Source: Desulfocapsa sulfexigens DSM 10523 (GTDB lineage: Bacteria; Desulfobacterota; Desulfobulbia; Desulfobulbales; Desulfocapsaceae). From it: 32,000 nt of DNA. The stretch lies in the NCBI RefSeq assembly GCF_000341395.1, contig NC_020304.1, positions 660,001-692,000 on the forward strand, written 5' to 3'. Each line of letters opens with the position of its first letter. Position 1 is the first letter of the stretch. Shown in pieces: positions 8,331-26,860 of this stretch. Position numbers and translations under genes: made by a program. The notes beneath the pieces were generated by a model that ran no database searches, was not told where the DNA came from, and was given only the letters and a program-made list of their open reading frames with translations.

Positions 8331-8346
8331 TGGCACATGGTTTGCA
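8331..8346 (+). promoter_or_regulatory. Sigma54 (RpoN) -24/-12 promoter element upstream of hsp20
   Basis: The sequence is TGGCAC-atggt-TTGCA (TGGCAC 8331-8336, TTGCA 8342-8346). It matches the consensus TGGCAC-N5-TTGCW exactly and ends 88 nt upstream of the hsp20 ATG. It lies in the 139-nt gap after the cytochrome operon. Confidence 0.55.
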
Positions 8347-8434: not shown

Positions 8435-8914
8435 ATGGCAAAGAAAAATGAACTGGCAAAGAAAGAAGAAAAGCGACCCGTTTCTTTTTTTGATGAGATG
8501 ACTAAGCTCTTCGAAAGGTTTCCCAGTCATCCCTTTTCAATGATGACTCACCCAACCATGTGGTCTGGCGGTCCTTTTTCCAAAATGGCTGACATCTCTC
8601 CCTCTGTTGATATTTTCGAGGAAGATGACACCATTGTGGTAAAAGCAGATATTCCTGGCATCAGCAAAGAGGATCTCAATGTTTCCATTAACGATAGCAT
8701 TCTGACCCTCTCCGGTGAGAAAAAGCAGGAGGAGAAAATTGAAAAGAAAAATTACCATCGGGTAGAGCGCTCATACGGCTCCTTCTCCCGTAGTTTTCAG
8801 CTTCCTGGTGCTGTGAACAGCGATCAGGTTAAAGCCTCTTTTAAAAAGGGAGTTCTGGAAATACGAATCCCCAAGACTGGTGATAACAAGAGAAAAAAAA
8901 TAAGCATCACATAA
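8435..8914 (+). CDS. Small heat-shock protein, Hsp20/alpha-crystallin family
   Basis: GGAGGA RBS at 8423-8428. Alpha-crystallin domain reads VDIFEEDDTIVVKADIPGISKEDLNVSINDSILTLSGEK...YHRVERSYGSFSRSFQLPGAVNSDQVKASFKKGVLEIRIPK. Confidence 0.92.
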   Translation: MAKKNELAKKEEKRPVSFFDEMTKLFERFPSHPFSMMTHPTMWSGGPFSKMADISPSVDIFEEDDTIVVKADIPGISKEDLNVSINDSILTLSGEKKQEEKIEKKNYHRVERSYGSFSRSFQLPGAVNSDQVKASFKKGVLEIRIPKTGDNKRKKISIT

Positions 8915-8957: not shown

Positions 8958-9020
8958 TCTCTGCTCCTGGTTTGATCCGGAAATAATATAATCTTTTTCG
9001 CAGTCGACCAGGAGCAGAGA
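8958..9020. repeat. 14-bp perfect inverted repeat with 35-nt spacer downstream of hsp20
   Basis: TCTCTGCTCCTGGT (8958-8971) is the exact reverse complement of ACCAGGAGCAGAGA (9007-9020). No U-tract follows on either strand, so this is not a canonical intrinsic terminator. Confidence 0.6.
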
Positions 9021-9193: not shown

Positions 9194-10228
9194 ATGAAAA
9201 TTTGTTTTATTATGTATCCATGGGAACGGGTAACCCCAGAAACAGATACCACGCTCAGACTGATTCATGAGTGCGTCAACAGAGGATATCTGGTCGCCAT
9301 CACGACACCAAATAAGCTGACCATCCGGGAAAGCATTACCAGTGCTTTCTGCAATGTGGCAGTAAAAGGTAAAACCTCACAAAATATCCCCTCGTTTTAC
9401 CGAAATGTGGAGTTTAAAAAACTTCTGCTCCCCCTGGCCGGTTTCGATGCGATCTTTATGCGTGCCAACCCACCGCTGGACACCCTGGCTCTGAACTTTC
9501 TTGACTCTGTACGTGATCACACATTTATCATAAACGATATCGACGGATTGAGAATCGCCAACAATAAAGTCTACACAGCCTCTTTTCAGGAGGAGGCCCA
9601 GGAATATATTCCCAGAACCTTTGTTTCAAAAAATCGAGATTACCTTATACGGATACTGAACGAATCGGAAGACGAACGGATGATCATGAAGCCACTGGAC
9701 GGTTACGGTGGCCGCGGTGTAATCATTCTCGAGAAATCAGCAAAACGCAATGTCTCCTCCCTCCTTGATTTCTATATCGGGGAAGGAGCGGACACCAACT
9801 ATGTGATCCTCCAGGAATATGCCCATGGAGCTGAAGACGGTGACGTGAGGATAATGATGCTCAATGGAGAACCCATAGGAGCAATGCGCCGTATACCGGC
9901 CCAGGATGACATCCGTTCAAACGTACATGCAGGAGGGAGTGTTGTCAAACACACGCTCAGCAACAGGGAAAGGCTGCTGTGCAAGGCGGTGGGGCCGAAA
10001 CTGGTTCGTGACGGTCTTTATTTTGCTGGTCTTGATGTCATTGGTGAAAAACTGATCGAGGTGAATGTACTCAGTCCCGGCGGTGTAGCCAGGATTAACA
10101 AACTCAACCGAACAAAACTTCAACAGAAGGTAATCGACTTTGTGGAGCGTGTTGTCGCAACCAAAGAGATCTCTATCAGTCGCAAACATTCATTTCGCAA
10201 GAGTATTGAAGATGCAGACCTTGTCTGA
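9194..10228 (+). CDS. Glutathione-synthetase (GshB)-family ATP-grasp ligase, possibly a paralogue with a different substrate
   Basis: Colinear similarity to E. coli GshB as I recall it: MKICFIMYP.., IMKPLDGYGG, DGDVRIMMLNGEPIGAMRRIP..IRSNVHAGG, GLYFAGLDVIGEKLIEVNVLSPGG. I prefer the ATG at 9194 (AAGGA at 9179-9183; homology starts there) over the track's 9107. No gshA is present in the window. Confidence 0.85.
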   Translation: MKICFIMYPWERVTPETDTTLRLIHECVNRGYLVAITTPNKLTIRESITSAFCNVAVKGKTSQNIPSFYRNVEFKKLLLPLAGFDAIFMRANPPLDTLALNFLDSVRDHTFIINDIDGLRIANNKVYTASFQEEAQEYIPRTFVSKNRDYLIRILNESEDERMIMKPLDGYGGRGVIILEKSAKRNVSSLLDFYIGEGADTNYVILQEYAHGAEDGDVRIMMLNGEPIGAMRRIPAQDDIRSNVHAGGSVVKHTLSNRERLLCKAVGPKLVRDGLYFAGLDVIGEKLIEVNVLSPGGVARINKLNRTKLQQKVIDFVERVVATKEISISRKHSFRKSIEDADLV

Positions 10229-12203
10229 AAAAGAGATCATTCGCAACATACGGCGTCAGGAACCCTTCGCAGCAGTTATTACCAGCGGAGCCTTCAGTAT
10301 CAGGGTTGATCGTTATACCCCTGCAGTCTGTACCGCCATTCATGCAGGACATGCAGTGCAGGAGGAGCTTCACGACAAACTGCTCCTGAGTGAAACCGAA
10401 AGACGCTATGAGGAAGATCCTTTTACCGGTGACATGCTGGCTTCTCTACCCATCGTCATGGAGGCGCTTGACTCACGTTACCAGTATGATCTGAACAGAT
10501 TGCCAGAGGAAGCCATCTATGATGAAGCCTGGGGTAAAAAGGTCTGGAAAGAGCCCCTCACAGAAAAGGAGAAACAGGCAAGCATTGCCAGGCATGACAG
10601 TTACTACAGGGTGCTTCATAGCCTTTTGACTGTTCTGGAAAAACTGTTTGCCCGCTGCATCATCTATGACCTGCACTCCTACAACCACAAACGCCTGACA
10701 GCTGCTACCCCGCTCTTCAACATAGGCACCCATTTCATAAATATGGATGAGTACCAACCGGTTGTGAATCATTTAAAGGGATTGCTCCTGAAAACAGAAT
10801 TTCCAAATATCGAAAACCGGCTGGCCCTCGATGATGTTTTTTTGGGAAAGGGCTATCAGGCGGCCTTTATCCATGAGCAGCACAACAAGAGCCTCTGTAT
10901 TCCCCTTGAAATCAAAAAAGTCTATATGGATGAGACCACGGGAGAGTCATACCCGCTTATCCTTGAAGCAGTTACTGAAACCCTGAAGCAGGCATTCAGC
11001 TACAATGCAGCCTATTTCAGCAGAAAATTTACCGGAAAAAAAATCCAGCGTGCCCTCTTCTTTGCCGAGGAAAGCAGCCGTGTAGTAAAAAAAGTTGATA
11101 CGGCTCTCTATCGGGTGGCCAAGGGGATTGATACACTGCGTTACATTAATCCTGTAAATCTTAGCCAGGAACGGAAACGTTTTTTTGCTAAACAGTGTAG
11201 TTACACTCCACAATTTCGCTATCGACAACTGAAAATTGACCCCTTTGCTTTTCGCAAGAAGCTTTACGCCATTGGTGTGGATACTATTCAGGATGTCAGC
11301 ATCCGCCAGCTCTATAGGAGCACTATCGACATGCTGGCCCAGAAAGTTGATCTTCTGACCACCATTGGAACAGACAGTTTCCTCTATAACTCTCTGCGGT
11401 TTCACGGAGAACCATCCGAGGCAGATATAGAACTGGCCCGTTTTCTTATTGCCGCCCCCCCTATCGAAAAAGAAAAAAATCCTAAACTGCTGAGCGCCAG
11501 AGAATGTGCAAATGTATTTAAGCGAGCTGAAAACGATTACGGCTTTAGCTTTCAGGTGGAACTGAGTAGTCGCATCGTGGCCAGAGCGATGGTTTCCAGT
11601 GGCCGCCGTAAAGTTATGATCAATCGCAACGCCCAGTTCACAGAAGTTGAGATTCAGGCGCTTATTCACCATGAATTAGGGGTACATATGGTGACCACCA
11701 GCAACGCCAGGCAACAGTATTTGAAAATCTTCAGGATGGGCCTGCCAGGGAACACCGAGACACAGGAGGGTCTGGCACTCCTCAGCGAATATCTGTCAGG
11801 CAACCTGACTCTTGCCCGTTTACAATCACTGGCCCACCGGGTAATGGCGGTGCACATGATGGTCAAAAACTATGATTTCCCAAGAACTTTTAAGGCCCTC
11901 AGCGATGACTACGGTCTCTCCCGGGAGGATGCCTTTAATCTGACGGTACGGGTATATCGTGGAGGGGGATTTACCAAGGATTATCTCTACCTCACAGGTC
12001 TGCGTAAGGCTCTGCAGCTCTATCGCTCCGGAACGGACCTACAACCCATGTTTGTGGGGAAGACTTCCATTGCCTTCCTCGACACCTTAAAAGAAATGCT
12101 TGGCCGGGATGTGGTATCCAACCCCCTGCATCTCCCCAGGGCCTGGCAGATGAAAGTACAGAGCAGTCCGATTCTGGACTATCTGCTAAGTTCTTTTGGA
12201 TAA
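10212..12203 (+). CDS. Fusion protein: N-terminal N-formylglutamate-amidohydrolase-like domain + C-terminal DUF1704 / QEGLA-motif (MATCAP-like) zinc metallopeptidase domain
   Basis: The C-terminal half carries HELGVH (HExxxH, 11670-11687) and TQEGLALLSEY (QEGLA, 11763-11777) about 30 residues later, the signature of the DUF1704/'QEGLA motif protein' family. The N-terminal half has an FGase-like IIYDLHSY motif. The ATG at 10212 overlaps the upstream stop by 17 nt; the track's TTG at 10140 is less likely. Confidence 0.8.
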   Translation: MQTLSEKEIIRNIRRQEPFAAVITSGAFSIRVDRYTPAVCTAIHAGHAVQEELHDKLLLSETERRYEEDPFTGDMLASLPIVMEALDSRYQYDLNRLPEEAIYDEAWGKKVWKEPLTEKEKQASIARHDSYYRVLHSLLTVLEKLFARCIIYDLHSYNHKRLTAATPLFNIGTHFINMDEYQPVVNHLKGLLLKTEFPNIENRLALDDVFLGKGYQAAFIHEQHNKSLCIPLEIKKVYMDETTGESYPLILEAVTETLKQAFSYNAAYFSRKFTGKKIQRALFFAEESSRVVKKVDTALYRVAKGIDTLRYINPVNLSQERKRFFAKQCSYTPQFRYRQLKIDPFAFRKKLYAIGVDTIQDVSIRQLYRSTIDMLAQKVDLLTTIGTDSFLYNSLRFHGEPSEADIELARFLIAAPPIEKEKNPKLLSARECANVFKRAENDYGFSFQVELSSRIVARAMVSSGRRKVMINRNAQFTEVEIQALIHHELGVHMVTTSNARQQYLKIFRMGLPGNTETQEGLALLSEYLSGNLTLARLQSLAHRVMAVHMMVKNYDFPRTFKALSDDYGLSREDAFNLTVRVYRGGGFTKDYLYLTGLRKALQLYRSGTDLQPMFVGKTSIAFLDTLKEMLGRDVVSNPLHLPRAWQMKVQSSPILDYLLSSFG

Positions 12204-12216
12204 GGAGATGATGTAT

Positions 12217-13074
12217 ATGAAATTTGCGGATATGCCCGATCAATATAGAGACTATGCTTCCTCAAAGGTGGTGATTCTGCCCATACCCTACGATGGTACT
12301 TCAACCTGGATGAAGGGTGCTGATCGCGGGCCGCAGGCCATATTGGATGCCTCCTTTCATCTGGAACTATACGATATAGAAACTGGAACGGAGGTATACC
12401 GTCATGGTATCTGTACTCTGGATCCAGTTTCCTGTCCAAAGGATCCAGGAGAAATGGTTGCAGAACTTCGGCAGCATGCCCTGCCCCTCTTCCGCGACAA
12501 CAAACTTGTGGTGGGGCTTGGCGGAGAGCATTCCATCACTGTCGGCCTGCTCCAGGCGGCACAGGCCCGCTATCCGAATTTGAGTGTCCTCCAGCTTGAT
12601 GCCCATACGGATCTGCGTGACAGTTATATGGGAAGCCCCTATAACCATGCCTGCGTTATGGCTAGAGCCAATGAAATCTGCCCGGTTGTACAGGTGGGAA
12701 TCCGCAGCATGGATATTGAGGAGATGGACAGTATCGAGCCAGACCGCCTGGTGCTTGCCCATGACCTGCATCGACACGGCATCAATGCTGCAACCAATGC
12801 TCTGGATCAGCTCACTGACACAGTTTATCTCACCATTGACCTTGATGTCCTTGATCCTTCCTGTATGCCATCCACCGGAACTCCGGAGCCAGGAGGAATT
12901 GACTGGTACATGCTGAACCAGATTATCCAGTACGTGGCCAGTGAAAAGAAAATAGTAGGCATGGATGTCGTAGAACTATTACCTCGCAAACATAATCAGG
13001 CCCCAGATTTCCTTGCTGCCAAACTTATTTACCGCTCTCTGAGTATGATCCTCACTGATTCTCTGAACCCATAG
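12217..13074 (+). CDS. speB: Agmatinase (ureohydrolase/arginase family)
   Basis: Mn-ligand motifs GGEHSIT, LDAHTDLRD and LTIDLDVLDPSCMPSTGTPEPGG. AAGGAG RBS at 12202-12207. The ATG at 12217 has the best spacing; in-frame alternatives are 12208, 12211 and TTG 12196. Confidence 0.88.
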   Translation: MKFADMPDQYRDYASSKVVILPIPYDGTSTWMKGADRGPQAILDASFHLELYDIETGTEVYRHGICTLDPVSCPKDPGEMVAELRQHALPLFRDNKLVVGLGGEHSITVGLLQAAQARYPNLSVLQLDAHTDLRDSYMGSPYNHACVMARANEICPVVQVGIRSMDIEEMDSIEPDRLVLAHDLHRHGINAATNALDQLTDTVYLTIDLDVLDPSCMPSTGTPEPGGIDWYMLNQIIQYVASEKKIVGMDVVELLPRKHNQAPDFLAAKLIYRSLSMILTDSLNP

Positions 13075-13136
13075 GCCAAAAACTGGCAGAACCTCGAAAA
13101 ACAAGAACATCCAGTTCCGTTTTTTTTAGTATTACA

Positions 13137-13159
13137 GAACTGAGAGTTCCTTTTTTTTT
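13137..13159 (+). terminator. Weak candidate intrinsic terminator after speB
   Basis: A 5-bp stem GAACT-gag-AGTTC (13137-13149) is followed by T9 (13151-13159). A second T8 run at 13120-13127 follows an even weaker 4-bp hairpin. The stems are short, so support is poor. Confidence 0.3.
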
Positions 13160-13255
13160 GAGTTGCCCCGTGTTATCCTGCCATAAAACAACCCTGCCAA
13201 AGTAATTTTCTGCAAAAACTCCCAAAAGCAGGTAAACATGATTAAGGATAAACAA

Positions 13256-13271
13256 TGGCATGCTGTTTGCT
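13256..13271 (+). promoter_or_regulatory. Sigma54 (RpoN) -24/-12 promoter element upstream of the LysW-like ORF/speA
   Basis: The sequence is TGGCAT-gctgt-TTGCT, with GG and GC at the canonical 12-nt register. It ends 62 nt upstream of the ATG at 13334 and lies in the 259-nt gap after speB. Confidence 0.5.
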
Positions 13272-13333
13272 ATGCGCAGAACGTACGGGAAAGGGGGGAA
13301 ATCAACCGGTACTTTCAATTTTAAGGTAACAGG

Positions 13334-13516
13334 ATGGGTAAAAAAAGATGTATGAGCTGTGGCGGTGATATTCGAATTTATTACGATCATGAGATTGGCG
13401 ATGAAGTATTCTGCGAAGAATGTGAACGGGAATACAGAATCTGTTCTTTACGCCCGGTTCATCTGGAACCTCTGGAAACAGGCAACGACTATCATTTTGA
13501 AGAAGATGATTATTAA
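13334..13516 (+). CDS. Small LysW-like zinc-ribbon protein (candidate amino-group carrier / acidic-tail substrate protein)
   Basis: The 60-aa product is MGKKRCMSCGGDIRIYYDHEIGDEVFCEECEREYRICSLRPVHLEPLETGNDYHFEEDDY. It has C6-x2-C9 and C27-x2-C30 (four-Cys ribbon), then an ...LRPVHLEP linker and an acidic tail. This is the same layout as Thermus LysW as I recall it (...VVCEDCGAELEV..LDPLRLEP...EDWGE). It sits 42 nt upstream of speA. There is no homology search to back this. Confidence 0.6.
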   Translation: MGKKRCMSCGGDIRIYYDHEIGDEVFCEECEREYRICSLRPVHLEPLETGNDYHFEEDDY

Positions 13517-13558
13517 CAGATATCAGCTCCCTGGAACAGAAGGGACTCGGAACATTTA

Positions 13559-15478
13559 ATGCGTAACACACAACACCAACCGTCTCAACAGAGAAGCTGT
13601 ACTCCCTATAATGTCGAATCCTGGGGCAACGGCTATTTTACTGCCAACGAGAAAGGGCACCTCTGCGTCCTTCCTGAAAAAAAGGAAATCGGTCCCAGAA
13701 TCGACTTTATGGAGGTCATCAAAGAGATACAGGAACAGGGAATTCCTTTTCCCACCGTTATACGCTTCCATGACATCCTTCGGGCTCAGGTTCAGCTCCT
13801 CAATATCACCTTTGCTAATACAATTACAGAGCATGGTTACCAGGGAAGATTTTATGGAGTGTATCCCATAAAGGTCAATCAGATGCGGGAGGTTGTTGAG
13901 GAAATCATTGATGCGGGCGGTCCCTTTGACCACGGTCTGGAGGCTGGATCAAAATCAGAGCTCCTGGCCTGTCTCGCCTATAATGACAACAGTAATTCTC
14001 TCACCATCTTAAACGGCTACAAGGACGAGGATTATATCCGACTCGCCCTGCTCGGCCGCAAGCTTGGACGAAAGATCATCATTGTTGTTGAAAGTTTTTC
14101 TGAGTTTGAGATGATTATTCGCCTTTCCAAGGAGATGCAGGCTGACCCGCTCATTGGGATCCGAACCAAGCTTTCAGTCAAAGGACGGGGACGCTGGGCC
14201 GGATCCAGCGGTGACCGTGCCAAATTCGGTCTCACCTGCAGCGAAATCGTTGAAGGAGTAGAGCTTCTGCAGCGAAACGGCATGACCAACTGTCTCAAAC
14301 TCCTCCACTTTCATGTGGGCAGCCAGATCCCCGATATTCGCATCGTAAAAGAGGCAGTCACCGAGGCAGGACGCATCTATGCCAACCTTGCCCAGAGTGG
14401 GATCATAATCGACTATTTTGATGTGGGTGGCGGACTCGGTATTGATTATGATGGCAGCAAATCAACGGGCGACTCTTCACGAAACTATACCCTGGCAGAA
14501 TACTCTGCAGATATTGTCAGCGGCCTGCAGCAGATCTGTGACGAGATGAATGTTCCCCACCCCCATATTGTCAGTGAAAGTGGCCGGTATATCACAGCCC
14601 ATCACTCCTGTGTTGTCACCAATGTGATTAACACCATCCATCAGGCCAGCAATCCGTGCAAAACAACCGTTAAAGAAGATGAACATGTCCTTCTTGGTAA
14701 TATGCGGGAATCAGCAGAGCACCTCAAGCTTGAGAACTGTCAGGAAATTTTCAATGACATTCAACAGATTAAAGAGGATACCATTGCCGCCTTCCGCCTC
14801 GGAGTCATCTGCCTGGTGGAACGGGCCAAAATAGAAACTCTCTACTGGCTGATTATTAACCGCATTGACACTATGCTTGCTGATCTCGATTTCATCCCCG
14901 AGGAAATGCAGCAGATAAAAGAACTCAAGGCCAGTCAGTACCTCTGCAACTTCTCCGTGTTCCAGTCTGCGGCTGACACCTGGGCCATCAGCCAGATCCT
15001 GCCCATTATGCCGCTGCTTCGCCTCGATGAAGAACCCAGTGAACGCTGCTCCCTTGCCGACATCACCTGTGATTCAGATGGAAAAATTACCCGCTTTATT
15101 GCCAAAGACGGGTATGATCAGAGTCTGCTCCTTCATACCCTGCAGCCAGACGAGGATTACTTTATCGGTCTTTTTCTCACCGGGGCCTATCAGGATGTTA
15201 TGGGTGATATGCATAACCTCTTTGGCCGCCTTAACGAGGTACATATCTACTGCGACGACGACGATCCCAACGACTTTTACATTGAAGAGGTGATCAGAGG
15301 AACATCGTCCCAGCAGGTTCTTGCCACCATGCAGTACAGCCCTGAAATCATGGCCAGATCTATCAAGACACAGATAGATCTGCAGATTAAACAGGGAACA
15401 GTGCTTCCACGGGAAGGTGTTGGCCTGATTGATTTTTACGAAAGCTGTCTCCAGGGTTACACATACCTGAATATTTAA
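13559..15478 (+). CDS. speA: Biosynthetic arginine decarboxylase (PLP, fold III)
   Basis: YNVESWGNGYFTANEKGHLCV, GVYPIKVNQ (PLP-Lys) and GLEAGSKSELLA match the E. coli SpeA landmarks YNIAWWGNNYY..., VYPIKVNQ and GLEAGSKAEL. Length is 639 aa. Confidence 0.93.
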   Translation: MRNTQHQPSQQRSCTPYNVESWGNGYFTANEKGHLCVLPEKKEIGPRIDFMEVIKEIQEQGIPFPTVIRFHDILRAQVQLLNITFANTITEHGYQGRFYGVYPIKVNQMREVVEEIIDAGGPFDHGLEAGSKSELLACLAYNDNSNSLTILNGYKDEDYIRLALLGRKLGRKIIIVVESFSEFEMIIRLSKEMQADPLIGIRTKLSVKGRGRWAGSSGDRAKFGLTCSEIVEGVELLQRNGMTNCLKLLHFHVGSQIPDIRIVKEAVTEAGRIYANLAQSGIIIDYFDVGGGLGIDYDGSKSTGDSSRNYTLAEYSADIVSGLQQICDEMNVPHPHIVSESGRYITAHHSCVVTNVINTIHQASNPCKTTVKEDEHVLLGNMRESAEHLKLENCQEIFNDIQQIKEDTIAAFRLGVICLVERAKIETLYWLIINRIDTMLADLDFIPEEMQQIKELKASQYLCNFSVFQSAADTWAISQILPIMPLLRLDEEPSERCSLADITCDSDGKITRFIAKDGYDQSLLLHTLQPDEDYFIGLFLTGAYQDVMGDMHNLFGRLNEVHIYCDDDDPNDFYIEEVIRGTSSQQVLATMQYSPEIMARSIKTQIDLQIKQGTVLPREGVGLIDFYESCLQGYTYLNI

Positions 15479-15497
15479 TAATTAAAGGATATTACTT

Positions 15498-16676
15498 ATG
15501 TCACGAGTACTTATTATCGGGGCCGGCGGAGTCGGTTCGGTTGTTGTCCACAAATGCTGCCAGGTGCCTGAGATATTCTCTGAAATCATGCTGGCTTCCC
15601 GTACCAGAGAAAAGTGCGACGCCATCGCGGCCCAGCTGCCCATAGCCATCCAGACCGCCAGGGTAGATGCGGATCAGGTAGAAGAGCTGGTAGCCCTGAT
15701 GCAGAGCTTCAAACCGGATTTATGTATAAATGTTGCTCTCCCCTACCAGGATCTTACCATCATGGATGCCTGCCTGGAGTGTGGTGTCAATTACCTTGAT
15801 ACGGCCAACTACGAACCACGCGATGAAGCAAAATTCGAATATCACTGGCAGTGGGCCTACCAGGAGCGTTTCAAGGAGGCTGGACTCATGGCTCTGCTTG
15901 GTTCCGGATTTGATCCCGGTGTCACCAATGTATTTACCGCCTGGGCCCTGAAAACCCAGTTTGATGAAATCCGGGAACTTGACATCATTGACTGTAATGC
16001 CGGAGATCATGGCCAGCCCTTCGCTACCAATTTTAATCCCGAGATCAATATCCGTGAGGTCACAGCCCCGGCCCGGCACTGGGAAGATGAGCAATGGGTG
16101 GAAACTCCTGCCCTGTCAACGAGCAAAGATTTTGACTTTCCCGAAGGGATCGGTCCGCGGAAGATCTACCTAATGTACCACGAAGAACTGGAGTCCCTGA
16201 CCAGACATATTCCCGGTCTGGAAAAAGCACGTTTCTGGATGACCTTTTCCGACAACTACCTCCGTCATCTTGAAGTGCTTCAGAACATTGGAATGACCAG
16301 TATAGAACCCGTGGAATACAATGGACAGCAGATCATCCCTCTGCAATTTCTGAAAGCACTCCTGCCCGATCCCGGCTCTCTTGGCCCCCTCACCCATGGA
16401 CGCACCTGCATAGGCTGTCTGATCAAAGGAATAAAGGATGGACGGGAAAAGGAGTACTATGTCTACAACATCTGCGACCATCAGCAGTGCTATGAAGAGG
16501 TTGGAGCACAGGCTGTTTCCTATACCACCGGCGTCCCGGCCATGATTGGGGCCATGCTTATGCTCAGCGGAGTCTGGAGCGGACACGGGGTTTTTAACAT
16601 GGAACAACTCGACCCTGCACCTTTTATGGAGAAGTTGAACCTGCATGGTCTGCCATGGAAAGAAGTTATCTCCTGA
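15498..16676 (+). CDS. Carboxy(nor)spermidine dehydrogenase (saccharopine-dehydrogenase family)
   Basis: N-terminal Rossmann motif VLIIGAGGVGSVVVHK...IMLASRT. At ~390 aa it matches CANSDH/CASDH, and it sits immediately upstream of nspC, overlapping it. Confidence 0.85.
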   Translation: MSRVLIIGAGGVGSVVVHKCCQVPEIFSEIMLASRTREKCDAIAAQLPIAIQTARVDADQVEELVALMQSFKPDLCINVALPYQDLTIMDACLECGVNYLDTANYEPRDEAKFEYHWQWAYQERFKEAGLMALLGSGFDPGVTNVFTAWALKTQFDEIRELDIIDCNAGDHGQPFATNFNPEINIREVTAPARHWEDEQWVETPALSTSKDFDFPEGIGPRKIYLMYHEELESLTRHIPGLEKARFWMTFSDNYLRHLEVLQNIGMTSIEPVEYNGQQIIPLQFLKALLPDPGSLGPLTHGRTCIGCLIKGIKDGREKEYYVYNICDHQQCYEEVGAQAVSYTTGVPAMIGAMLMLSGVWSGHGVFNMEQLDPAPFMEKLNLHGLPWKEVIS

Positions 16677-17812
16677 ATTTCGACCCGGAGCAGGTGAATA
16701 CCCCCTGCTTTGTGGTCGATGAATCGGCACTCCTTCGCAATCTCAAAATCCTGGATGAGGTGCAGCAGCAAACAGAGTGCCGGATCCTCCTGGCTCTTAA
16801 GGGATTTGCCATGCCCGGCGTTTTCCCTCTTGTTCGTAAATATCTGCACGGGGTCTGTGCCAGTTCTCCCCACGAAGCAAGACTTGGAAGAGAGGATTTT
16901 CAGCGGGAAGTACACAGTCACGGTCCTGCCTTCAGCGACAGGGATCTGACCGAGCATCTGCTCTACTGTGATCATCTGGTCTTTAACAGCTTTCAGCAGT
17001 GGCACCGTTTCCAGAAACAGGTCAGGGAATGTCCGAGAGATATCTCCTGCGGTCTGCGGGTTAACCCCGCTCACTCCGAAACTGCGGTCGCCCTGTATGA
17101 TCCCTGCCGCCCTGGCTCCCGCCTCGGTATTTTGCGGGAACAGTTTAGTGGAAAGGATCTTACTGGAATCAGTGGTCTCCACCTCCACACTCTCTGTGAA
17201 AAGGGAGCAGACGCACTGGCTCGAACGGCAGAGGTCTTTGAAGAGCAATTCGGGGAATTTTTACCTCGCATGCAGTGGCTCAATCTGGGAGGCGGTCATC
17301 TTATCACGGCTCCTGGCTATGACACTGGTCTCCTTTGTGAAGTCATCAACCATTTCCGCTCCCGCCATGATCTGACCATTTATCTGGAACCAGGTGAGGC
17401 CATAGCCATCAACACCGGAGCACTTATCACTACTGTCCTTGATATAATTGACAATGATGGTCCCATAGCTATCCTTGACACCTCGGTCTCCTGTCATATG
17501 CCAGATGTCCTGGAAATGCCCTACCGGCCTGATATCAGGGGGGCCTCCCTGCCCGATACTCTGGCCCACAACTACCGTTTGGGAGGAGTCTCCTGTCTGG
17601 CTGGAGATATGCTTGGAGATTACTCCTTTGCTGCCCCATTGCAGGTTGGTGACCGCCTTATCATCGAAGACATGAGCCACTACACCATGGTCAAGACCAA
17701 CACCTTTAACGGAGTTCGCCTGCCGGATATCGCACTGTACAGGCCAGAAAGGAAGGCAGTAGAGACCCTCCGCAGCTTTACTTATGAAGACTACCGGAAT
17801 CGTCTTGGGTAA
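16655..17812 (+). CDS. nspC: Carboxy(nor)spermidine decarboxylase
   Basis: Fold-III decarboxylase with the NspC-type N-terminus TPCFVVDESALLRNLKILD...ILLALKGF. It overlaps the dehydrogenase gene by 22 nt, which is the canonical pairing. Confidence 0.88.
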   Translation: MERSYLLNFDPEQVNTPCFVVDESALLRNLKILDEVQQQTECRILLALKGFAMPGVFPLVRKYLHGVCASSPHEARLGREDFQREVHSHGPAFSDRDLTEHLLYCDHLVFNSFQQWHRFQKQVRECPRDISCGLRVNPAHSETAVALYDPCRPGSRLGILREQFSGKDLTGISGLHLHTLCEKGADALARTAEVFEEQFGEFLPRMQWLNLGGGHLITAPGYDTGLLCEVINHFRSRHDLTIYLEPGEAIAINTGALITTVLDIIDNDGPIAILDTSVSCHMPDVLEMPYRPDIRGASLPDTLAHNYRLGGVSCLAGDMLGDYSFAAPLQVGDRLIIEDMSHYTMVKTNTFNGVRLPDIALYRPERKAVETLRSFTYEDYRNRLG

Positions 17813-17880
17813 AATTTAAGAAAGCAGAAACCGTATTTTGACAGAATAGCAGCAACCGTCTCATTGAGGATAACACACAA

Positions 17881-19035
17881 ATGAAAAAAACATGCTCACC
17901 CCCAGAGTCAAAACCCACCGACGCAGGACTTGCCGACACGGTCGCCTGCGATTCAGATATCTGTTTTATTGATGGAAAGGAAGGACGACTTGTCTACCGT
18001 GGATATGACGCCCTGGAGCTTGCAGAGAAGAGCAGCTTTGAAGAGGTTGCCTATCTACTCTGGTATGGTTGCCTGCCAAGAGAGACTGAATTTAATGCCT
18101 TTCTCGACGGCCTTCGTGCTTCCATGGCATTACCCACGGAAACCGTCATGATCCTGCGAATGTTTCCCAAAACAGCGACCCCCATGGAGGTCATCCGCAC
18201 AGCAGTATCTTCCCTCGGCCACTGGGATCCGGACAGCGGCAATACGGGACTGTCCGCTTCTCTTCGCAAGGCACAGCGTCTCACCCTCCGTATCCCTCTG
18301 CTTATTGCTGCCCATCAACGGCTGCGGGAAGGACTGGAGCCAATCCAGCCCATACCGGGGCATGGTATCGCCTACAATTTCCTCTATACTCTACAGGGGA
18401 AAGCTCCGGATCCACTGGTAGAACAAGCCTTTGATACTGCCCTTATTCTTCACGCCGACCACGAACTGAACGCATCAACCTTTGCCGCCCGGGTGACAGC
18501 GGCAACACTCTCGGACATCTACTCATCGGTAACCTCCGCCATCGGTGCCCTCAAAGGACCGCTCCATGGTGGTGCCAATATGGAGGTAATGCAGCTTATT
18601 GAAGAAATCGGCAGACCTGAACTGGCTGAAAAAATCATCCTTGAAAAACTTGCAAACAAGATCAAGATTCCTGGATTTGGTCACAGGGTATACCGTTGCG
18701 AAGATCCACGAGTGAACATGATCAGAGAGCTGGTACGCAGCCTGAGCAGTGCCATGGGCGATAGCAACAACTTTGCCATAACACAGGAAATAGAAAGGGT
18801 AGTCCTTGAACAGACCAAAGTGTTCCCCAATGTGGATCTTTACACCGCCTCACTTTACAGTGCCATGGGCCTGCCTCCTGAACTCTTCACTCCGATTTTC
18901 GCCATCAGCAGAACCGTTGGCTGGACATCACACATCATGGAACAGTGGGGAAACAACCGCCTTATTCGACCACGGGCAGAATACATCGGCCCCACGGATC
19001 TTCACTACGTAAGTATAGAAGAACGCTCCAGATAG
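17881..19035 (+). CDS. gltA: Citrate synthase (short, ~380-aa type; could also be 2-methylcitrate synthase)
   Basis: GLADTVACDSDICFIDGKEGRLVYRGYDALELA, LILHADHELNASTF and GFGHRVYRCEDPR are the catalytic His/His/Asp region motifs of the citrate synthase family. GAGGA RBS is present. Confidence 0.88.
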   Translation: MKKTCSPPESKPTDAGLADTVACDSDICFIDGKEGRLVYRGYDALELAEKSSFEEVAYLLWYGCLPRETEFNAFLDGLRASMALPTETVMILRMFPKTATPMEVIRTAVSSLGHWDPDSGNTGLSASLRKAQRLTLRIPLLIAAHQRLREGLEPIQPIPGHGIAYNFLYTLQGKAPDPLVEQAFDTALILHADHELNASTFAARVTAATLSDIYSSVTSAIGALKGPLHGGANMEVMQLIEEIGRPELAEKIILEKLANKIKIPGFGHRVYRCEDPRVNMIRELVRSLSSAMGDSNNFAITQEIERVVLEQTKVFPNVDLYTASLYSAMGLPPELFTPIFAISRTVGWTSHIMEQWGNNRLIRPRAEYIGPTDLHYVSIEERSR

Positions 19036-19132
19036 CAAAAGCAGATCCCGTACATCCTTTCCTCCATGGAGACATTCGTTTCCATGGGGGCGATATCAGG
19101 CTCTCTCATAAGAACAGCAACACGCGAAGCCC

Positions 19133-20608
19133 ATGAACTCTGTACTTATAATAATTGATTCTCTGGATCTGTGGGAGCCCTACTATCACAGCGACAGTGT
19201 TATTACAGCCATTCAGTATCTGCAACGTGAAGAATTAAGTCAGGATCCTCATCTGGTAATCAATCTCTGTTCAGATCTCTCCTATAACTCTGAGGGCTAT
19301 TACTGTTCCTTGCTGGCTCAGGCAAGAGACCATAAAGTCATCCCGAAAGTTGAAACTTTGAACAAGTTCGACAACAGCATCACCATGAAGCTCGATAGTG
19401 CAATGAGCCGCCTTCTCAGATTTGACAAGTCTGCTCTTTTTGAAAAAGAGTGTGACTGTAGTCATCATCTGGATCTGTTTTTTGGGAAGTGTGAAGATCC
19501 AAAGTACGAACGTCTTGGTCGTTTCTTCTTTGATCTATATCCCTGTCCACTTATGCGGGTAAGCTTCAGTGGACCGCAACGAGCGGAGATCTGTAATATT
19601 CGTTTGCTGTCACTCACCGAACTTGATGACCGTCAGCAGGATCTTTTTGCAGGCAGTCTGGATTTATTCAACAAAAAGGTATGGCGGCAGCCACGCAGTA
19701 AAAAACCGGCCCGCTATGATCTGGCAATCTTTTATGACCCGGAAGAACTCCTTCCACCAAGTAACAAAAGTGCCCTCAAGCTCTTTTTAAATGAAGCCAG
19801 AAAAATGAATGTGAATGCTGAGCTGCTCACCGCAGATGATGCTTCACGCCTAATGGAATTCGACGCACTCTTTATCCGCCAGACAACTGCGGTGAACCAC
19901 ATCACCTATCAACTGGCGCAAAAGGCACAGCAGGCTGACATGGTAGTCATAGATGATCCAGCCTCCATTGTCTGCTGCACCAATAAGGTCTACCTCAAAG
20001 AACTTATGGACAGATCTGCCATACCAGCACCCAGATCGATTCTCCTGTTCAGGGAAAAAATTCCATCCTATGAGGAAGTCTCTGAATACCTCGGACGGAC
20101 GATGGTCATGAAGATTCCGGATGGTTCTTTTTCCATCGGTGTTTCCCTGGTTTCTTCAGATAAGGAATACATCGCCCTGCAGGAAGCACTTTTTCAGCAC
20201 TCTTCGGTTTTACTTATACAGGAATTTATGCCCACGGAGTTTGACTGGAGAATCGGTGTATTAAATGGCGAGTGTATCTACGCCTGTAAATATTACATGG
20301 CCCGCGGCCACTGGCAGATTTATCAGCATAAGGCAAGTGGTCTCACAAAATCCGGCAAAAGTGAGACCGTTCCTGTTCACCAGGTACCATCCCAGGTCAC
20401 CCGTATTGCCAAAAAAGTGTCCGCAGCCATTGGCAAAGGATTGTACGGGGTTGACATAAAAGATGTCGATGGCCAGGCAGTGGTGATCGAGGTTAACGAT
20501 AATCCCTCCATTGATCACGGCGTCGAAGACAAGATTCTTGGCAGTGAACTGTACCGGATAATTCTGCGTGAGTTTATTGCCCGTTTGAACAAAAAAAGAA
20601 GGGCCTGA
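19133..20608 (+). CDS. RimK/LysX-family ATP-grasp ligase with ~200-aa N-terminal extension
   Basis: The C-terminal half has RimK-type motifs: MVMKIPDGSFSIGV, LLIQEFMPTEFDWRIGVLNGE and GLYGVDIKDVDGQAVVIEVNDNPS. I do not recognise the N-terminal domain. The RBS is weak, so the start is less certain. Confidence 0.8.
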   Translation: MNSVLIIIDSLDLWEPYYHSDSVITAIQYLQREELSQDPHLVINLCSDLSYNSEGYYCSLLAQARDHKVIPKVETLNKFDNSITMKLDSAMSRLLRFDKSALFEKECDCSHHLDLFFGKCEDPKYERLGRFFFDLYPCPLMRVSFSGPQRAEICNIRLLSLTELDDRQQDLFAGSLDLFNKKVWRQPRSKKPARYDLAIFYDPEELLPPSNKSALKLFLNEARKMNVNAELLTADDASRLMEFDALFIRQTTAVNHITYQLAQKAQQADMVVIDDPASIVCCTNKVYLKELMDRSAIPAPRSILLFREKIPSYEEVSEYLGRTMVMKIPDGSFSIGVSLVSSDKEYIALQEALFQHSSVLLIQEFMPTEFDWRIGVLNGECIYACKYYMARGHWQIYQHKASGLTKSGKSETVPVHQVPSQVTRIAKKVSAAIGKGLYGVDIKDVDGQAVVIEVNDNPSIDHGVEDKILGSELYRIILREFIARLNKKRRA

Positions 20609-20614
20609 TACGAG

Positions 20615-21079
20615 ATGACCAGGATTATGGCAGTTACCAAAGAAGATATCCCCGGGCTCTGCCTCCTCGAGGAACAACTTTTTACCTGTGATCGGATATC
20701 TCCCAGGCAATTCAGTTATCTGATTTCCAAAGCAAACAGTGTTGTTATCAAGGCAGTCTGTTCCGAAATATTTGCAGGGTACATGGTGCTGCTGAGGCGC
20801 AGAAATAGCCGGAGGATGCGGATCTATTCACTCGGGGTCGCCCCATCTGTGAGACGACTGGGTGTTGCAGCTGAGATGCTTGCATTTGCAGAAGATATTG
20901 CTGCAAAACATAACTGTAATTGTCTGAGTCTCGAGGTTTCCAAACATAACGATGCCGCCCTGAGATTCTACAAAAATGCTGGTTTTCTCTACTATGGTGA
21001 AAAACAGAAGTTTTACGAAGACGGAACCACTGCCCTGCTGTTAAAAAAAAACATACCTGAAAGAGAAACACAACCATGA
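20615..21079 (+). CDS. GNAT family N-acetyltransferase (RimI-like size)
   Basis: Acetyl-CoA motif region IYSLGVAPSVRRLGVAAEML...LSLEVSKHNDAALRFYKNAGF. It starts 6 nt after the RimK-like stop, and its stop overlaps the SET start. Confidence 0.85.
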   Translation: MTRIMAVTKEDIPGLCLLEEQLFTCDRISPRQFSYLISKANSVVIKAVCSEIFAGYMVLLRRRNSRRMRIYSLGVAPSVRRLGVAAEMLAFAEDIAAKHNCNCLSLEVSKHNDAALRFYKNAGFLYYGEKQKFYEDGTTALLLKKNIPERETQP

Positions 21080-21672
21080 TTCATCCTGACACCGAAGTTC
21101 GCTACATAAACGAAGAAAAAGGGAACGGACTCTTTGCCACCAGTTTTATTCCCAGAGGAACTGTCACCTGGGTACTCGATGTCCTCGACAGGGAGATCCC
21201 CCCTGAAGACATGGCAGCCTATGACCAGCAAATCCGAGAAGTTCTCCTCACCTATTCATTCCGGAACAGCAAGGGGAACTACATCTTCTGTTGGGATAAC
21301 GGTCGCTACATAAACCACAGTTTTCATGCAAACTGTTGCCTTACCCCCTATAACTTTGAGATTGCTATAAAGGATATCAATGCCGGGGAAGAATTAACAG
21401 ATGACTACGGTACTCTTAACATCATCGAACCCTTTACAGTTGATTCGGAAGGCGGCAATCGAAACACTGTCTACCCCGATGATCTTCTGCACTACAGTAA
21501 AATATGGGATGCAAAAATTGCCGCGGCTTTTCCAGAACTGTCAGTGGTAAAACAGCCTCTGTGGAAGTTTTTTTCCCCAGAAACCCAAAAGGCCGTTCAA
21601 CAGGTTCTTGAGGGAACCTCCCCACTGCCTTCCATCAAATCCTGCTATTATGATAAGAGCATTGTGGAATAA
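21076..21672 (+). CDS. SET-domain protein (putative lysine methyltransferase)
   Basis: EKGNGLFATSFIPRGT, GRYINHSFHANC (NHS/C motif) and GEELTDDYG (ELxxDY motif) are typical of the SET fold. ATGA overlap at 21076-21079. Confidence 0.8.
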   Translation: MIHPDTEVRYINEEKGNGLFATSFIPRGTVTWVLDVLDREIPPEDMAAYDQQIREVLLTYSFRNSKGNYIFCWDNGRYINHSFHANCCLTPYNFEIAIKDINAGEELTDDYGTLNIIEPFTVDSEGGNRNTVYPDDLLHYSKIWDAKIAAAFPELSVVKQPLWKFFSPETQKAVQQVLEGTSPLPSIKSCYYDKSIVE

Positions 21673-22487: not shown

Positions 22488-24110
22488 CTATTTCATCTTC
22501 AACACATGCTCGGAAATATTGTTTGCATGATTATTTATCCGACCAATGTCCTTGAGAACATACGGGTAAAAGGCATCAATGACAGGTCGAAGTTGATCAT
22601 TTTCCTGCCTGTACAAAAATTTATTTCTGTACTCCGTTTTTAATGCATCCAGCTGATGTTCCATTTTATGAACGTCTATATCCAGGGTTTTGACTCTTTC
22701 CTTCAGACCATTTGCAGCCACCATGTAAGCTTGAACGGCATTATCAAAAAACTCTGCAAGCTCCTTTCTGGCTGCTTCTGAAAAAAACACTTTTTCCTGG
22801 CTGGCGTATCCTGCTATATTTTCCGCCAGGTCTGCAATCCGTTCCAGGTCAGTCGTGGCATGAGCCAGAGCTCTTTTCCTGGCCCTGTCTTGTTCGTTCA
22901 GCATGACGGTATTTATTTTATTCAGATAATTGCCCACCTTTTCATGAATGATGTCAACGGCCCTCTCGTTTTCCGTGAGCTGCCCGGAGCTGTTTGTATC
23001 GTTTTCAAAAAATGTTTTTCGGGCCTGGGTCAGTGATTCACCGACAACGGCTGCCATCCGATTCACCTCCTGTTCCGCCTCGTACAAGGCAAGTGCCGGG
23101 ACGGTGAGAAACTTTTCTTCCAGGAGACCGTGGGAGGAAATGACCTCTTCATTCTTTCCCGGAATAAGGATACTCAGAAAATGCATCAATATGGTGACAA
23201 AGGGCATCATAATCAGACTGACAGTGACATTGAAAACAGTATGGGCATTGGCGATAAGCCTTGGTGTATCCGATGCAGTCAGGGCGATCAGTCCTGCGAA
23301 CTGTTCAAGAAACGGGAAAAAGAGTACAGCCCCACTGATATTGATGATAAACTGGGCCATTCCTGTTCGCCTGGCCGCTATACTGGTACCTGCCGCTGCA
23401 ATGAGTTCCAGGACGCAGGTGCCTATATTAGCCCCGATGATCAGAGCTATCCCTGCATCAAGGGATATTATGCCTTCCATACTCATGGCTATCACAAGAC
23501 TTGTCGTTGCCGAACTGCTGTTGGTAACCGCGGTCAGAACAGCACCAATCACAATACCGAGCAAGGGGTACACCCCGAAGTCTGCTATGACCTTCAGGAC
23601 AAAAGGATACTCTTTTAAGGGAGAGGCACCGTCGGCCATGATCTTCATGGAAAGGAAGATCATCCCCATGTAGAGGAGTGTATCTCCAATATGATTGACC
23701 TTCTCCTTTTTCCCAAGCCGACTCATGGCAAACCCGGCTATTATCAGGGGGTAAAATATCATTTTTACCTTGAAGGCGATTATCTGGGCAGTAATGGTGG
23801 TACCAATTTCAGAACCGAGAATAACGTAGATGGACTGCCGCAAAGTCATGATTCCGGAATTGACCAGGCCGAGCAGCAGCAGAACCGTGACACTTGAGCT
23901 CTGCACCATAAAGGTGACAACAGTGCCTGTGAGAGCGCCCTTTACCGGGTTCCCCGTTGCTTTCTGGAGGATGTTTTTCAGGCGGACACTGGCGACTTTT
24001 TTTAAGGTATTGCTCAGCATATTGATACTGAACATAAACAGAGCCAGTCCTCCGCCCAATTGTAGAAGGATAAAAAAAAGGTTCATGGGCCTGTCCATAC
24101 CATTCTCCAT
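22488..24110 (-). CDS. Na+/phosphate cotransporter family protein with C-terminal PhoU-like domain
   Basis: The N-terminal ~330 aa is polytopic membrane with NaPi-II-type repeats (GTVVTFMVQSSSVTVLLLLGLV..., AVTNSSSATTSLVIAM...). The C-terminal helical region is PhoU-like (RALAHATTDLERIADLAENIA; IGRINNHANNISEHVL). The start may instead be the ATG at 24098, which has a GGAGA 5 nt upstream. Confidence 0.88.
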   Translation of the reverse strand: MENGMDRPMNLFFILLQLGGGLALFMFSINMLSNTLKKVASVRLKNILQKATGNPVKGALTGTVVTFMVQSSSVTVLLLLGLVNSGIMTLRQSIYVILGSEIGTTITAQIIAFKVKMIFYPLIIAGFAMSRLGKKEKVNHIGDTLLYMGMIFLSMKIMADGASPLKEYPFVLKVIADFGVYPLLGIVIGAVLTAVTNSSSATTSLVIAMSMEGIISLDAGIALIIGANIGTCVLELIAAAGTSIAARRTGMAQFIINISGAVLFFPFLEQFAGLIALTASDTPRLIANAHTVFNVTVSLIMMPFVTILMHFLSILIPGKNEEVISSHGLLEEKFLTVPALALYEAEQEVNRMAAVVGESLTQARKTFFENDTNSSGQLTENERAVDIIHEKVGNYLNKINTVMLNEQDRARKRALAHATTDLERIADLAENIAGYASQEKVFFSEAARKELAEFFDNAVQAYMVAANGLKERVKTLDIDVHKMEHQLDALKTEYRNKFLYRQENDQLRPVIDAFYPYVLKDIGRINNHANNISEHVLKMK

Positions 24111-24337
24111 TCATAAATGATGTTCAGTTGGCAGTGCGGCCAATAAAACTGACGTGTATATGGTAGTAGTACCTCTTCCTGAGGGAGACCGGTTGTATTT
24201 GATTTGTTACTCCAGTGTGATATAGTTCTCCACACAGGAATACAGGAAAGGTGCATGACAATGTCTTATTAATCATATCTTAAAATTGTCAGCTCTTGCA
24301 AGCCGACCAGCCAAAAAATTCTTAACAGGAATATAAA

Positions 24338-25747: not shown

Positions 25748-25776
25748 GAAAAGCAGGGGTTACATCAGAGACGATA

Positions 25777-26838: not shown

Positions 26839-26860
26839 AAAAAAGAGTAACATCTCATTT

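Follow-up and report, generated by a model that had tools for sequence, protein, structure and literature searches.

A 32,000-nucleotide stretch of the genome of Desulfocapsa sulfexigens DSM 10523 (hereinafter the window) contains a block of eleven co-directional genes on the plus strand (9194-21672), as delineated in an earlier note that had been made from the sequence alone and had presented the block as one candidate system. Judging by gene order in relatives, the block is instead a supra-operonic juxtaposition of three independently conserved modules. Module 1 encompasses a gshB-like ATP-grasp ligase, a fusion of an FGase-like amidohydrolase with a MATCAP/DUF1704 metallopeptidase, and agmatinase (speB); module 2 includes a small LysW-fold zinc ribbon (hereinafter the mini-protein), arginine decarboxylase (speA), a carboxyspermidine dehydrogenase-type enzyme (CASDH) and carboxyspermidine decarboxylase (nspC); and module 3 consists of citrate synthase, a RimK-type ligase with an N-terminal RLAN domain, a GNAT acetyltransferase and a SET-domain protein. 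The ligase and the fusion protein of module 1 form an obligate pair, and we tentatively propose, with a probability of roughly 40%, that this pair is a writer and eraser for acidic C-terminal protein tails which is tied to counter-cation homeostasis. The gene context of the pair, together with one transcriptome, suggests that such editing of acidic protein tails would proceed in step with polyamine supply. The family annotations that the earlier note had given for all eleven genes were borne out by profile searches (Table 1).

In a survey of 80 genome loci that encode the pair (loci are denoted below by L numbers), the gshB-like gene lies directly 5' of the FGase-MATCAP gene in 74, adjacency being defined as an end no more than 60 nt from the start of the fusion. 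These loci belong to Gammaproteobacteria, Trueperaceae, Scalinduaceae, Flavobacteriales, Nitrospirota, Sulfurimonadaceae and Desulfobacterota. The fusion protein comprises an FGase-like domain (amino acids 36-234; PF05013, E 7e-17, 62.8 bits against a threshold of 28.9) and a MATCAP/DUF1704 domain (amino acids 321-659; PF08014, E 3e-111, 372 bits), and exceeds the threshold of the QEGLA family TIGR02421 (387 bits against 339). The HELGVH (HExxxH) and QEGLA motifs, encoded at 11670-11687 and 11763-11777, respectively, are invariant in an alignment of homologues. In total, the fusion has 1,118 matches at E <= 1e-10; both domains are present in 120 of 120 among the matches listed. In the AlphaFold model of the fusion (pLDDT 88), the N-terminal half resembles N-formylglutamate amidohydrolase 2Q7S (Foldseek E 2e-8, TMt 0.70) and the C-terminal half resembles human MATCAP 7Z6S/7Z5G (Foldseek E 5e-9, TMt 0.64-0.68); the only sequence relatives of the fusion with solved structures are those of human MATCAP (7Z5G, 7Z5H and 7Z6S). 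No hut genes were found near the fusion. The MATCAP/TMCP enzymes were characterised in 2022-2023 as tubulin-tail carboxypeptidases. In eukaryotes, they cut Tyr and Glu off acidic tails and trim polyglutamate chains (PMC10499314). A literature search for bacterial DUF1704/QEGLA, TIGR02421, MATCAP or RLAN proteins retrieved no function, although some of the pairings may have been covered before, in a survey of ATP-grasp gene neighbourhoods (Iyer et al., 2009).

The gshB-like ligase is best matched by NF009110 (445 bits against a cutoff of 408); among the equivalog models of glutathione synthetase, it narrowly passes NF003573 (275.7 bits against 272) and falls below TIGR01380 (238.7 against 299). 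Given these scores and the similarity to Escherichia coli GshB (1GSA; E 2e-33, approximately 30% identity), the ligase can be classified as a paralogue subfamily of glutathione synthetase. Public annotations use two starts for this gene, at 9107 (373 aa, WP_208598481) and at 9194 (344 aa, AGF77153), and the homology to GshB begins at the latter. In Photobacterium damselae, the gshB-like gene (RS17020) coexists with a canonical gshB that encodes a 315-aa protein (RS03915), and the two are regulated in opposite directions at low salt (PMC10308900), which argues that the pair is a paralogous system distinct from glutathione synthesis.

The same transcriptome, an RNA-seq comparison of P. damselae at 1% and 3.5% NaCl (PMC10308900 and its supplementary file 3), links the pair to a physiological condition. 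At 1% NaCl, the gshB-like gene is induced 38.4-fold and the gene for the QEGLA protein (RS17025) 27.5-fold, along with the flanking genes for a 56-aa protein (RS17005; 18.6-fold) and a DUF413 protein (RS17015; 9.1-fold), rimK (52-fold), speB (11-fold), the carboxynorspermidine synthase and decarboxylase genes (about 5-fold) and a mechanosensitive channel gene (5.5-fold); hdfR and the canonical gshB are down-regulated, 2.3-fold and 1.6-fold, respectively (PMC10308900). The pair thus shares, in P. damselae, a low-salt stimulon with polyamine synthesis and RimK.

In genomic neighbourhoods, the pair is recurrently associated with polyamine genes, rimK and cation transport or MscS functions. Polyamine genes of two different routes adjoin the pair in at least five lineages (L058, L027/L029, L018, L077, L083 and L011), in support of the functional link to polyamine genes that the earlier note had drawn. 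Agmatinase and SpeA-like genes occur within 10 kb of the pair in six loci from at least four lineages, to be compared with about 0.4 loci expected by chance for a single-copy gene (our estimate, not a computed value). In L058 (Porticoccaceae), the gene order is DUF413 (divergent from hdfR), gshB-like, fusion, speA, CASDH, nspC, speB; in L018, an nspC-like gene lies directly 3' of the pair; and in the Flavobacteriales loci L077 and L083, a different polyamine set is found, namely a short SpeA-like gene, agmatinase and a deoxyhypusine-synthase-like gene. The rimK or rimB gene or a RimK-associated AstE/AspA-like gene adjoins the pair in Desulfobulbales (L005, L098, L099 and L101) and in the Thiomicrorhabdus group (L012, L014 and L028). 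The gene for the Mg2+ transporter MgtE is located near the pair in six loci from four lineages, and in L005, L098, L099 and the P0017 contig, the fusion gene faces a convergent gene for an MscS-type channel. Past the MscS gene, L098 (14809-20446) and L099 (8414-13471) have a conserved cluster encoding a histone-deacetylase-GNAT fusion and two D-Ala-D-Ala-ligase-like ATP-grasp enzymes, which in L098 are accompanied by a lysine-2,3-aminomutase-like radical SAM enzyme, followed by MgtE; this cluster may be responsible for the synthesis of a beta-lysine-containing peptide or osmolyte.

Three unrelated groups of small proteins with acidic tails are encoded next to the pair. The first group consists of DUF413 proteins (PF04219, the MaoP/YifE family), whose genes, divergent from hdfR, directly precede the gshB-like gene in 37 loci from several orders of Gammaproteobacteria. 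Many of them carry a long acidic tail, and most Photobacterium members end in ...DLDY or ...DIDI. In Neptuniibacter (L071, L076 and L079), two DUF413 paralogues bracket the pair, of which the upstream one lacks an acidic tail and the downstream one, about 450 nt 3' of the pair, ends in ...VEESV, ...LEERM or ...VEERL. The second group, of 52-57 aa and with no Pfam match, is encoded beside the cluster in about 20 Photobacterium loci and ends in ...FDYDEY, ...YSDFDY or ...EYDDSY; in L025 and L033 its gene is relocated to a position just 3' of the fusion (~12210-12384, minus strand). These proteins (MAKLDQKFSKGSKSK...KKKRR...PEY.D..Y; for example, L048 7065-7235, minus strand) are unannotated and combine a basic centre with an acidic, aromatic C-terminus. 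When small open reading frames (ORFs) were tested for tails with at least three D/E and at least two aromatic residues among the last eight, the last one being aromatic, 17 of the 2262 ORFs within 3.5 kb of the pair qualified, compared with 1 of 3205 farther away.

The third group is represented in the window by the mini-protein (UWK_00575), in which four cysteines (Cys6/9/27/30) are followed by the tail ...GNDYHFEEDDY. The earlier note had singled out this ORF and its tail, and both turned out to be conserved in orthologous loci: pairwise dN/dS is about 0.1, pN is 0.05-0.26 in the last 12 codons against a pS of 0.4-1.3, and within the subfamily the terminal motif DYxF[ED][EDA][DG][ED][YF]-COOH is maintained, the last residue always being Tyr or Phe. 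The mini-ORF is a genuine gene and evolves under purifying selection. The mini-protein aligns with Thermus thermophilus LysW (3WWL) over residues 5-47 (phmmer E 8.6e-6), the alignment ending before the tail, and its AlphaFold model matches the LysW chains 5EIO_C, 3WWN_B and 3WWL (TM 0.66-0.84, probability 1.00), with residues 50-60 predicted to be disordered (tail pLDDT <50). The scores lie below all LysW cutoffs (PF21344, 23.0 against 27; TIGR01206, 26.9 against 53.2; NF041070, 25 against 75 bits), and no LysX/ArgX, LysZ, LysY, LysJ or LysK genes were detected in the window or the related loci. In the LysW pathway, LysX loads the terminal Glu of the ...EDWGE tail. Because this Glu and the partner genes are missing and the scores are below threshold, a classical LysW pathway was rejected, as the earlier note had anticipated.

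The mini-protein has few relatives: an exhaustive HMMER search of 1.84 billion representative sequences yielded only 54 at E <= 1e-3, and a metagenome scan with a narrow family alignment yielded 7 loci. The wider family consists of zinc ribbons of 50-150 aa with tails that are rich in D, E, Y, F and W and vary in length and last residue; two or three paralogues can occur in one short contig (L001, L084 and L089), and no second paralogue was found in the window with tblastn. A 66-aa ORF in another frame (13359-13559, plus strand) overlaps the mini-ORF, and the alternative frame is open in all homologues (for example, L003 192-386; L001 344-670 and 2876-3040); one database protein, P0132, combines both frames as the result of a frameshift. 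As a second gene, this ORF was dismissed; it is most likely a by-product of codon usage, since GAA/GAT-rich codons seldom create stops in the alternative frame.

The sigma-54 consensus TGGCAY-N5-TTGCW has two matches in the window, with 0.12 expected, one of them 62 nt 5' of the mini-ORF start. The element also precedes mini-family genes in 10 other loci, the exception being L101, and a divergent gene for a sigma-54 activator is often found beside them, so that the mini-protein gene is predicted to be under sigma-54 control. The other match, TGGCACATGGTTTGCA (8331-8346, plus strand), lies about 90 nt 5' of hsp20 (Hsp20/alpha-crystallin, 8435-8914) and on this ground suggests sigma-54 control of that gene too.

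Mini-protein and fusion genes co-occur in three architectures: (i) the arrangement in the window and L084; (ii) in L005 and L098, a sigma-54 promoter followed by an ORF of about 105 aa, a mini-protein (...NEDFDSF or ...NEGYDPY), a second mini-protein and the fusion; and (iii) in L101, a sigma-54 activator gene followed by a mini-protein (...DDYFGDLMFED), DUF2179, the gshB-like ligase and the fusion, adjoined by rimK. The ORF of about 105-110 aa in the second architecture (L005 8952-9269; L098 8786-9118), the first gene past the sigma-54 promoter of the mini-mini-FGase-MATCAP operon in two Desulfocapsa-like metagenome-assembled genomes, encodes an N-terminal signal-like segment and an acidic body and has no Pfam match. 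A mini-protein gene close to the DUF1704 gene is thus seen in the window and L084, in L005 and L098, and in L101, but does not extend to the pair at large, given that a hidden Markov model of the mini-family matches only one of the 80 pair loci (L005) and that the remaining 79 lack a mini-protein and mostly lack polyamine genes.

The idea of a single eleven-gene system was rejected because synteny breaks at the module boundaries, in different places in L084 and in L094 and L095. L084, the closest syntenic relative (fusion 76% identical), retains the order MgtE, gshB-like, fusion, speB, mini, speA, CASDH, nspC, after which come two further mini paralogues, and genes for an MCP and a sigma-54 activator, and it lacks citrate synthase, RimK, GNAT and SET. 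L094 (80% identity) and L095 of Desulfopila encode citrate synthase, RLAN-RimK, GNAT and SET, and have neither module 1 nor a mini-protein; in L096 of Mangrovibacterium, only RLAN-RimK and GNAT are kept and SET is absent. Within 10 kb of the pair, RLAN-RimK and GNAT genes are found in none of the 80 loci, and SET-like sequence is limited to a fragment in L005. L084, L085 and L086 share the order gshB-like, FGase-MATCAP, speB. Module 2 can also stand apart from the pair: L088 combines a mini-protein with speA, CASDH and nspC and has no ligase-peptidase pair in its flanks, and in L092, two mini-proteins are encoded between rimB/rimK/AstE-like genes and a convergent nspC-CASDH-speA operon, again with no pair in the flanks.

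The proposed mechanism would involve the GshB-type ATP-grasp enzyme activating a tail carboxylate and adding an amino acid, either Glu or a terminal aromatic residue, the MATCAP domain trimming C-terminal residues as the eukaryotic enzymes do on ...EEY tails and polyglutamate, and the FGase domain removing a branch-point Glu, that is, one attached via its amino group. Such a writer/eraser appears to be the most economical model because it draws on the tail cleavage by MATCAP/TMCP enzymes, on carboxylate extension by ATP-grasp enzymes (GshB, RimK and TTL-type enzymes each couple an amino acid to a carboxylate) and on the membership of the FGase domain in a family of N-acyl-glutamate amidases, which is why it could take off an amino-linked Glu. 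The clients would be lineage-specific, namely LysW-fold mini-proteins in Desulfocapsa and relatives, and DUF413 and the 56-aa protein in Gammaproteobacteria, and expression of the pair would accompany that of polyamine synthesis, RimK and Mg2+/MscS functions in a response to low ionic strength (a counter-cation response). In its most specific form, the model posits a bacterial cycle, similar to tyrosination/detyrosination or glutamylation/deglutamylation, that rewrites the C-termini of LysW-fold mini-proteins, DUF413/MaoP-like proteins and the 56-aa Photobacterium protein, is activated along with polyamine synthesis when ionic strength is low, and corresponds in prokaryotes to the MATCAP arm of the tubulin code, which may even derive from it; in this full form, we regard it as rather doubtful. 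A cycle on an acidic, aromatic-ended tail was among the options raised in the earlier note, and it has gained circumstantial support from the three mini/fusion architectures and the two unrelated acidic-tailed proteins that flank the pair in Gammaproteobacteria.

Several observations weigh against tail editing. The activities of the bacterial pair are predicted, and those GshB and FGase enzymes that have been characterised use small-molecule substrates. In Desulfobulbales, the FGase-MATCAP loci L004, L006, L008, L099 and L100 lack a mini-protein; conversely, mini-proteins occur with speA or rimK and no pair in the flanks (L088 and L092) or beside mreB (L001). The matches in the tail test come mostly from Photobacterium, so the independent enrichment events are few, and an inspection of all small ORFs in 25 loci outside Gammaproteobacteria and Desulfocapsa revealed no consistent acidic-tailed ORF by the pair. 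Therefore, with no universal client adjacent, either the client gene lies at a distance or the pair acts on a small molecule. Furthermore, E. coli MaoP, a DUF413 protein, ends in ...EGAEDYTDSDD, yet no pair adjoins its gene, so acidity is a trait of the DUF413 family.

The main rival, and a serious one, is a function in small-molecule metabolism, which, although somewhat doubtful in our estimate, accommodates several of these facts. Here, the gshB-like ligase would make an amide or peptide, such as a glutamyl or polyamine conjugate, that FGase-MATCAP would hydrolyse, buffering polyamine or glutamate pools after osmotic downshift, and the acidic-tailed proteins would be co-regulated neighbours. 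The small-molecule precedents of both families, the retention of the pair in many phyla where its neighbourhood offers no candidate protein client, its proximity to polyamine genes of two routes in at least five lineages, its induction at low salt together with such genes and the recurrence of Mg2+ transporter and MscS genes beside it are all in line with this possibility. However, the sole characterised enzymes of the MATCAP family are protein-tail carboxypeptidases (PMC10499314), small proteins of three unrelated acidic-tailed groups are encoded beside the pair in several arrangements, and rimK and rimB, which encode protein-tail modifiers, repeatedly adjoin it. It is unlikely, given these architectures, that the mini-protein is associated with the pair by location only, being a small protein of the sigma-54 regulon (for example, a protein-binding regulator or a DNA/polycation mimic) in modules brought together by synteny within Desulfobulbales. 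The numerous mini paralogues in short contigs, the presence of a dedicated sigma-54 promoter in nearly all cases followed by variable downstream genes (speA, mreB, MgtC-like or FGase-MATCAP), and the highly variable tails in the wider family would fit such a scenario, but it does not account for three different mini/FGase-MATCAP architectures, the parallel gene order in L058, where DUF413 precedes the pair and the polyamine genes, or the strong conservation of the terminal motif inside the mini subfamily.

Two further options appear far less probable. The earlier note had considered a LysW-type carrier, with a polyamine-related amine or acid built on the tail of the mini-protein, loaded by the gshB-like or RimK-like ligase and unloaded by the fusion; this reading received no specific support and is very unlikely. 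The LysW fold and homology are real, and the mini gene is inside the polyamine operon in three lineages (the window, L084 and L088), but the tail ends in Tyr or Phe and lacks the attachment Glu of LysW, genes of the LysX/Z/Y/J/K type are absent, speA, speB, CASDH and nspC match families that act on free substrates, and the polyamine operons of the relatives L095 and L058 lack the mini-protein. It is equally hard to believe that the RLAN-RimK, GNAT and SET proteins modify the mini-protein by glutamylation, acetylation and methylation: all three families do include protein modifiers, but the trio and the mini-protein are co-located in D. sulfexigens only, the trio being kept with no nearby mini-protein in L094, L095 and L096 and the mini-protein with no trio in L084 and L088. 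This candidate was rejected for lack of co-occurrence outside D. sulfexigens. On balance, we favour the editing of acidic protein tails by the pair.

Table 1. Genes and promoter of the D. sulfexigens block (window coordinates)
Feature	Position	Strand	Family matches and remarks	Module
gshB-like ATP-grasp ligase	9194..10228	+	PF02951 + PF02955; NF009110 445 bits	1
FGase + MATCAP/DUF1704 fusion	10215..12203	+	PF05013, PF08014, TIGR02421	1
Agmatinase (speB)	12208..13074	+	TIGR01230 227 bits, cutoff 174	1
Predicted sigma-54 (-24/-12) promoter, consensus TGGCATGCTGTTTGCT	13256..13271	+	62 nt 5' of mini-ORF start	
Mini-protein UWK_00575, 60 aa, four-Cys LysW-fold zinc ribbon	13334..13516	+		2
Biosynthetic arginine decarboxylase (speA)	13559..15478	+	NF003763 809 bits; TIGR01273 716 bits	2
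Carboxy(nor)spermidine dehydrogenase-type, saccharopine-dehydrogenase-type (CASDH)	15498..16676	+	PF03435 + PF16653	2
Carboxy(nor)spermidine decarboxylase (nspC)	16655..17812	+	TIGR01047 489 bits, cutoff 409	2
Citrate synthase	17881..19035	+	PF00285; TIGR01800 458 bits	3
RLAN + RimK-type ATP-grasp ligase, 491 aa	19133..20608	+	PF14401 E 1e-41; PF08443	3
RimI-like GNAT acetyltransferase	20615..21079	+	PF00583; TIGR01575 56 bits, under cutoff	3
SET-domain protein	21076..21672	+	PF00856 E 4e-12; Desulfobulbales only	3

The spacing of the genes is compatible with the modular layout. The gshB-like gene and the fusion overlap by 14 nt and the first ATG of speB lies 4 nt past the fusion stop, which suggests that the three are translationally coupled; a 259-bp gap follows. 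Mini-ORF and speA are separated by 42 nt and speA and CASDH by 19 nt, and CASDH overlaps nspC; the distances are 68 nt between nspC and citrate synthase, 97 nt between citrate synthase and RLAN-RimK, and 6 nt between RLAN-RimK and GNAT, with a 4-nt overlap between GNAT and SET. In the databases, AGF77153 is the gshB-like protein, AGF77156 (UWK_00575, 'hypothetical protein') is the mini-ORF product and AGF77161 is RLAN-RimK. No Rfam family reached its gathering score in the window, so that no riboswitch or other RNA element was detected, and scans for sigma-70 promoters and intrinsic terminators are uninformative because the counts are no higher than in shuffled sequence.

Module 2 is predicted to make spermidine from arginine, through the carboxyspermidine or the carboxyaminopropylagmatine variant of the pathway. 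The speA, speB and nspC products pass the cutoffs of their families, and CASDH reaches 419 bits with NF043000, for which the equivalog cutoff is 800. As for module 3, we infer that it is a separate protein-modification trio. The RLAN-RimK protein, with about 7,900 homologues, scores below the RimK thresholds (TIGR00768, 68.9 against 143.4 bits; NF007764, 26 against 331). Citrate synthase is directly 5' of RLAN-RimK, GNAT and SET in three genera of Desulfobulbales (the window, L094 6745-7899 and L095 6790-7941), and in L094 and L095, it is preceded by a divergent sigma-54 activator gene. Because mammalian RIMKLB makes beta-citrylglutamate, a RimK-type ligase that uses citrate is conceivable; equally, this may be a housekeeping citrate synthase.

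Between the hsp20 stop and the gshB-like gene, there is a perfect 12-bp inverted repeat, CTCTGCTCCTGG...CCAGGAGCAGAG (~8959-9019, loop of about 36 nt), which could be a terminator or an operator; it was not reported by the terminator scan because it has no T-run. The upstream flank (1405-8295) encodes an NHL-repeat protein, several multihaem cytochromes and TPR proteins, and the downstream flank (22488-30704) a Na/Pi cotransporter-PhoU protein, a beta-CASP RNase, CorA and a 782-aa channel of the MscS family. The beta-CASP, CorA and MscS genes recur by FGase-MATCAP or mini loci of relatives (L005, L092 and L098).

The abundant bacterial homologues of MATCAP (>1,100) now have a concrete functional hypothesis that can be addressed in the tractable Photobacterium and that offers an obligate ligase partner, candidate clients with defined C-terminal motifs, low-salt induction and physiological partners (polyamines, RimK, Mg2+ transport and MscS). 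If this hypothesis is correct, bacterial osmotic and cation homeostasis would include a reversible modification of protein C-termini, with a bearing on the origin of a eukaryotic enzyme of cytoskeletal modification. Should the pair instead act on a small molecule, it would still define a polyamine-linked metabolite that is new. Separately, a family of LysW-fold proteins that appears to be sigma-54-controlled and does not consist of lysine/arginine carriers is defined here.

Among the known systems, the closest parallel is the modification of tubulin by TTL/TTLL and MATCAP/TMCP enzymes, with which the pair shares a true MATCAP-family peptidase domain (with the HExxxH and QEGLA motifs and the 7Z5G/7Z6S fold), an ATP-grasp partner and candidate clients whose disordered acidic tails often end in Tyr or Phe. 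In contrast to that system, the pair is found in bacteria, which have no tubulin, the ligase is of the GshB rather than the TTL type, an FGase-like amidohydrolase domain is joined to the peptidase, the putative clients depend on the lineage, and the activity is predicted. The glutamylation of S6 by RimK/RimB (with RimA) similarly involves an ATP-grasp ligase and a protease acting on an acidic C-terminus, and classical rimK/rimB genes adjoin the FGase-MATCAP gene in several loci, with rimK being co-induced in P. damselae; however, the ligase of the pair has the GSH-S_N and GSH-S_ATP domains, the hydrolase is a gluzincin with FGase rather than a retropepsin, and S6 is not implicated. With the LysW/AmCP carrier system, the mini-protein shares the zinc-ribbon fold, sequence homology and a flexible acidic tail, but this tail ends in Tyr or Phe instead of ...EDWGE, the scores are sub-threshold, the LysX/Z/Y/J/K genes are absent, and the gene is apparently sigma-54-driven and belongs to a multi-paralogue family. 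Compared to glutathione synthetase GshB, the ligase has the same domain pair and the level of identity to 1GSA noted above, but it belongs to the NF009110 subfamily, below the TIGR01380 cutoff, and is partnered with the FGase-MATCAP fusion. In glutathionylspermidine synthetase/amidase (Gss), one bifunctional protein carries an ATP-grasp-type ligase and a CHAP amidase; the two act on the same amide and are linked to polyamines, whereas here the ligase and the FGase-MATCAP hydrolase are separate proteins and the conjugate is hypothetical.

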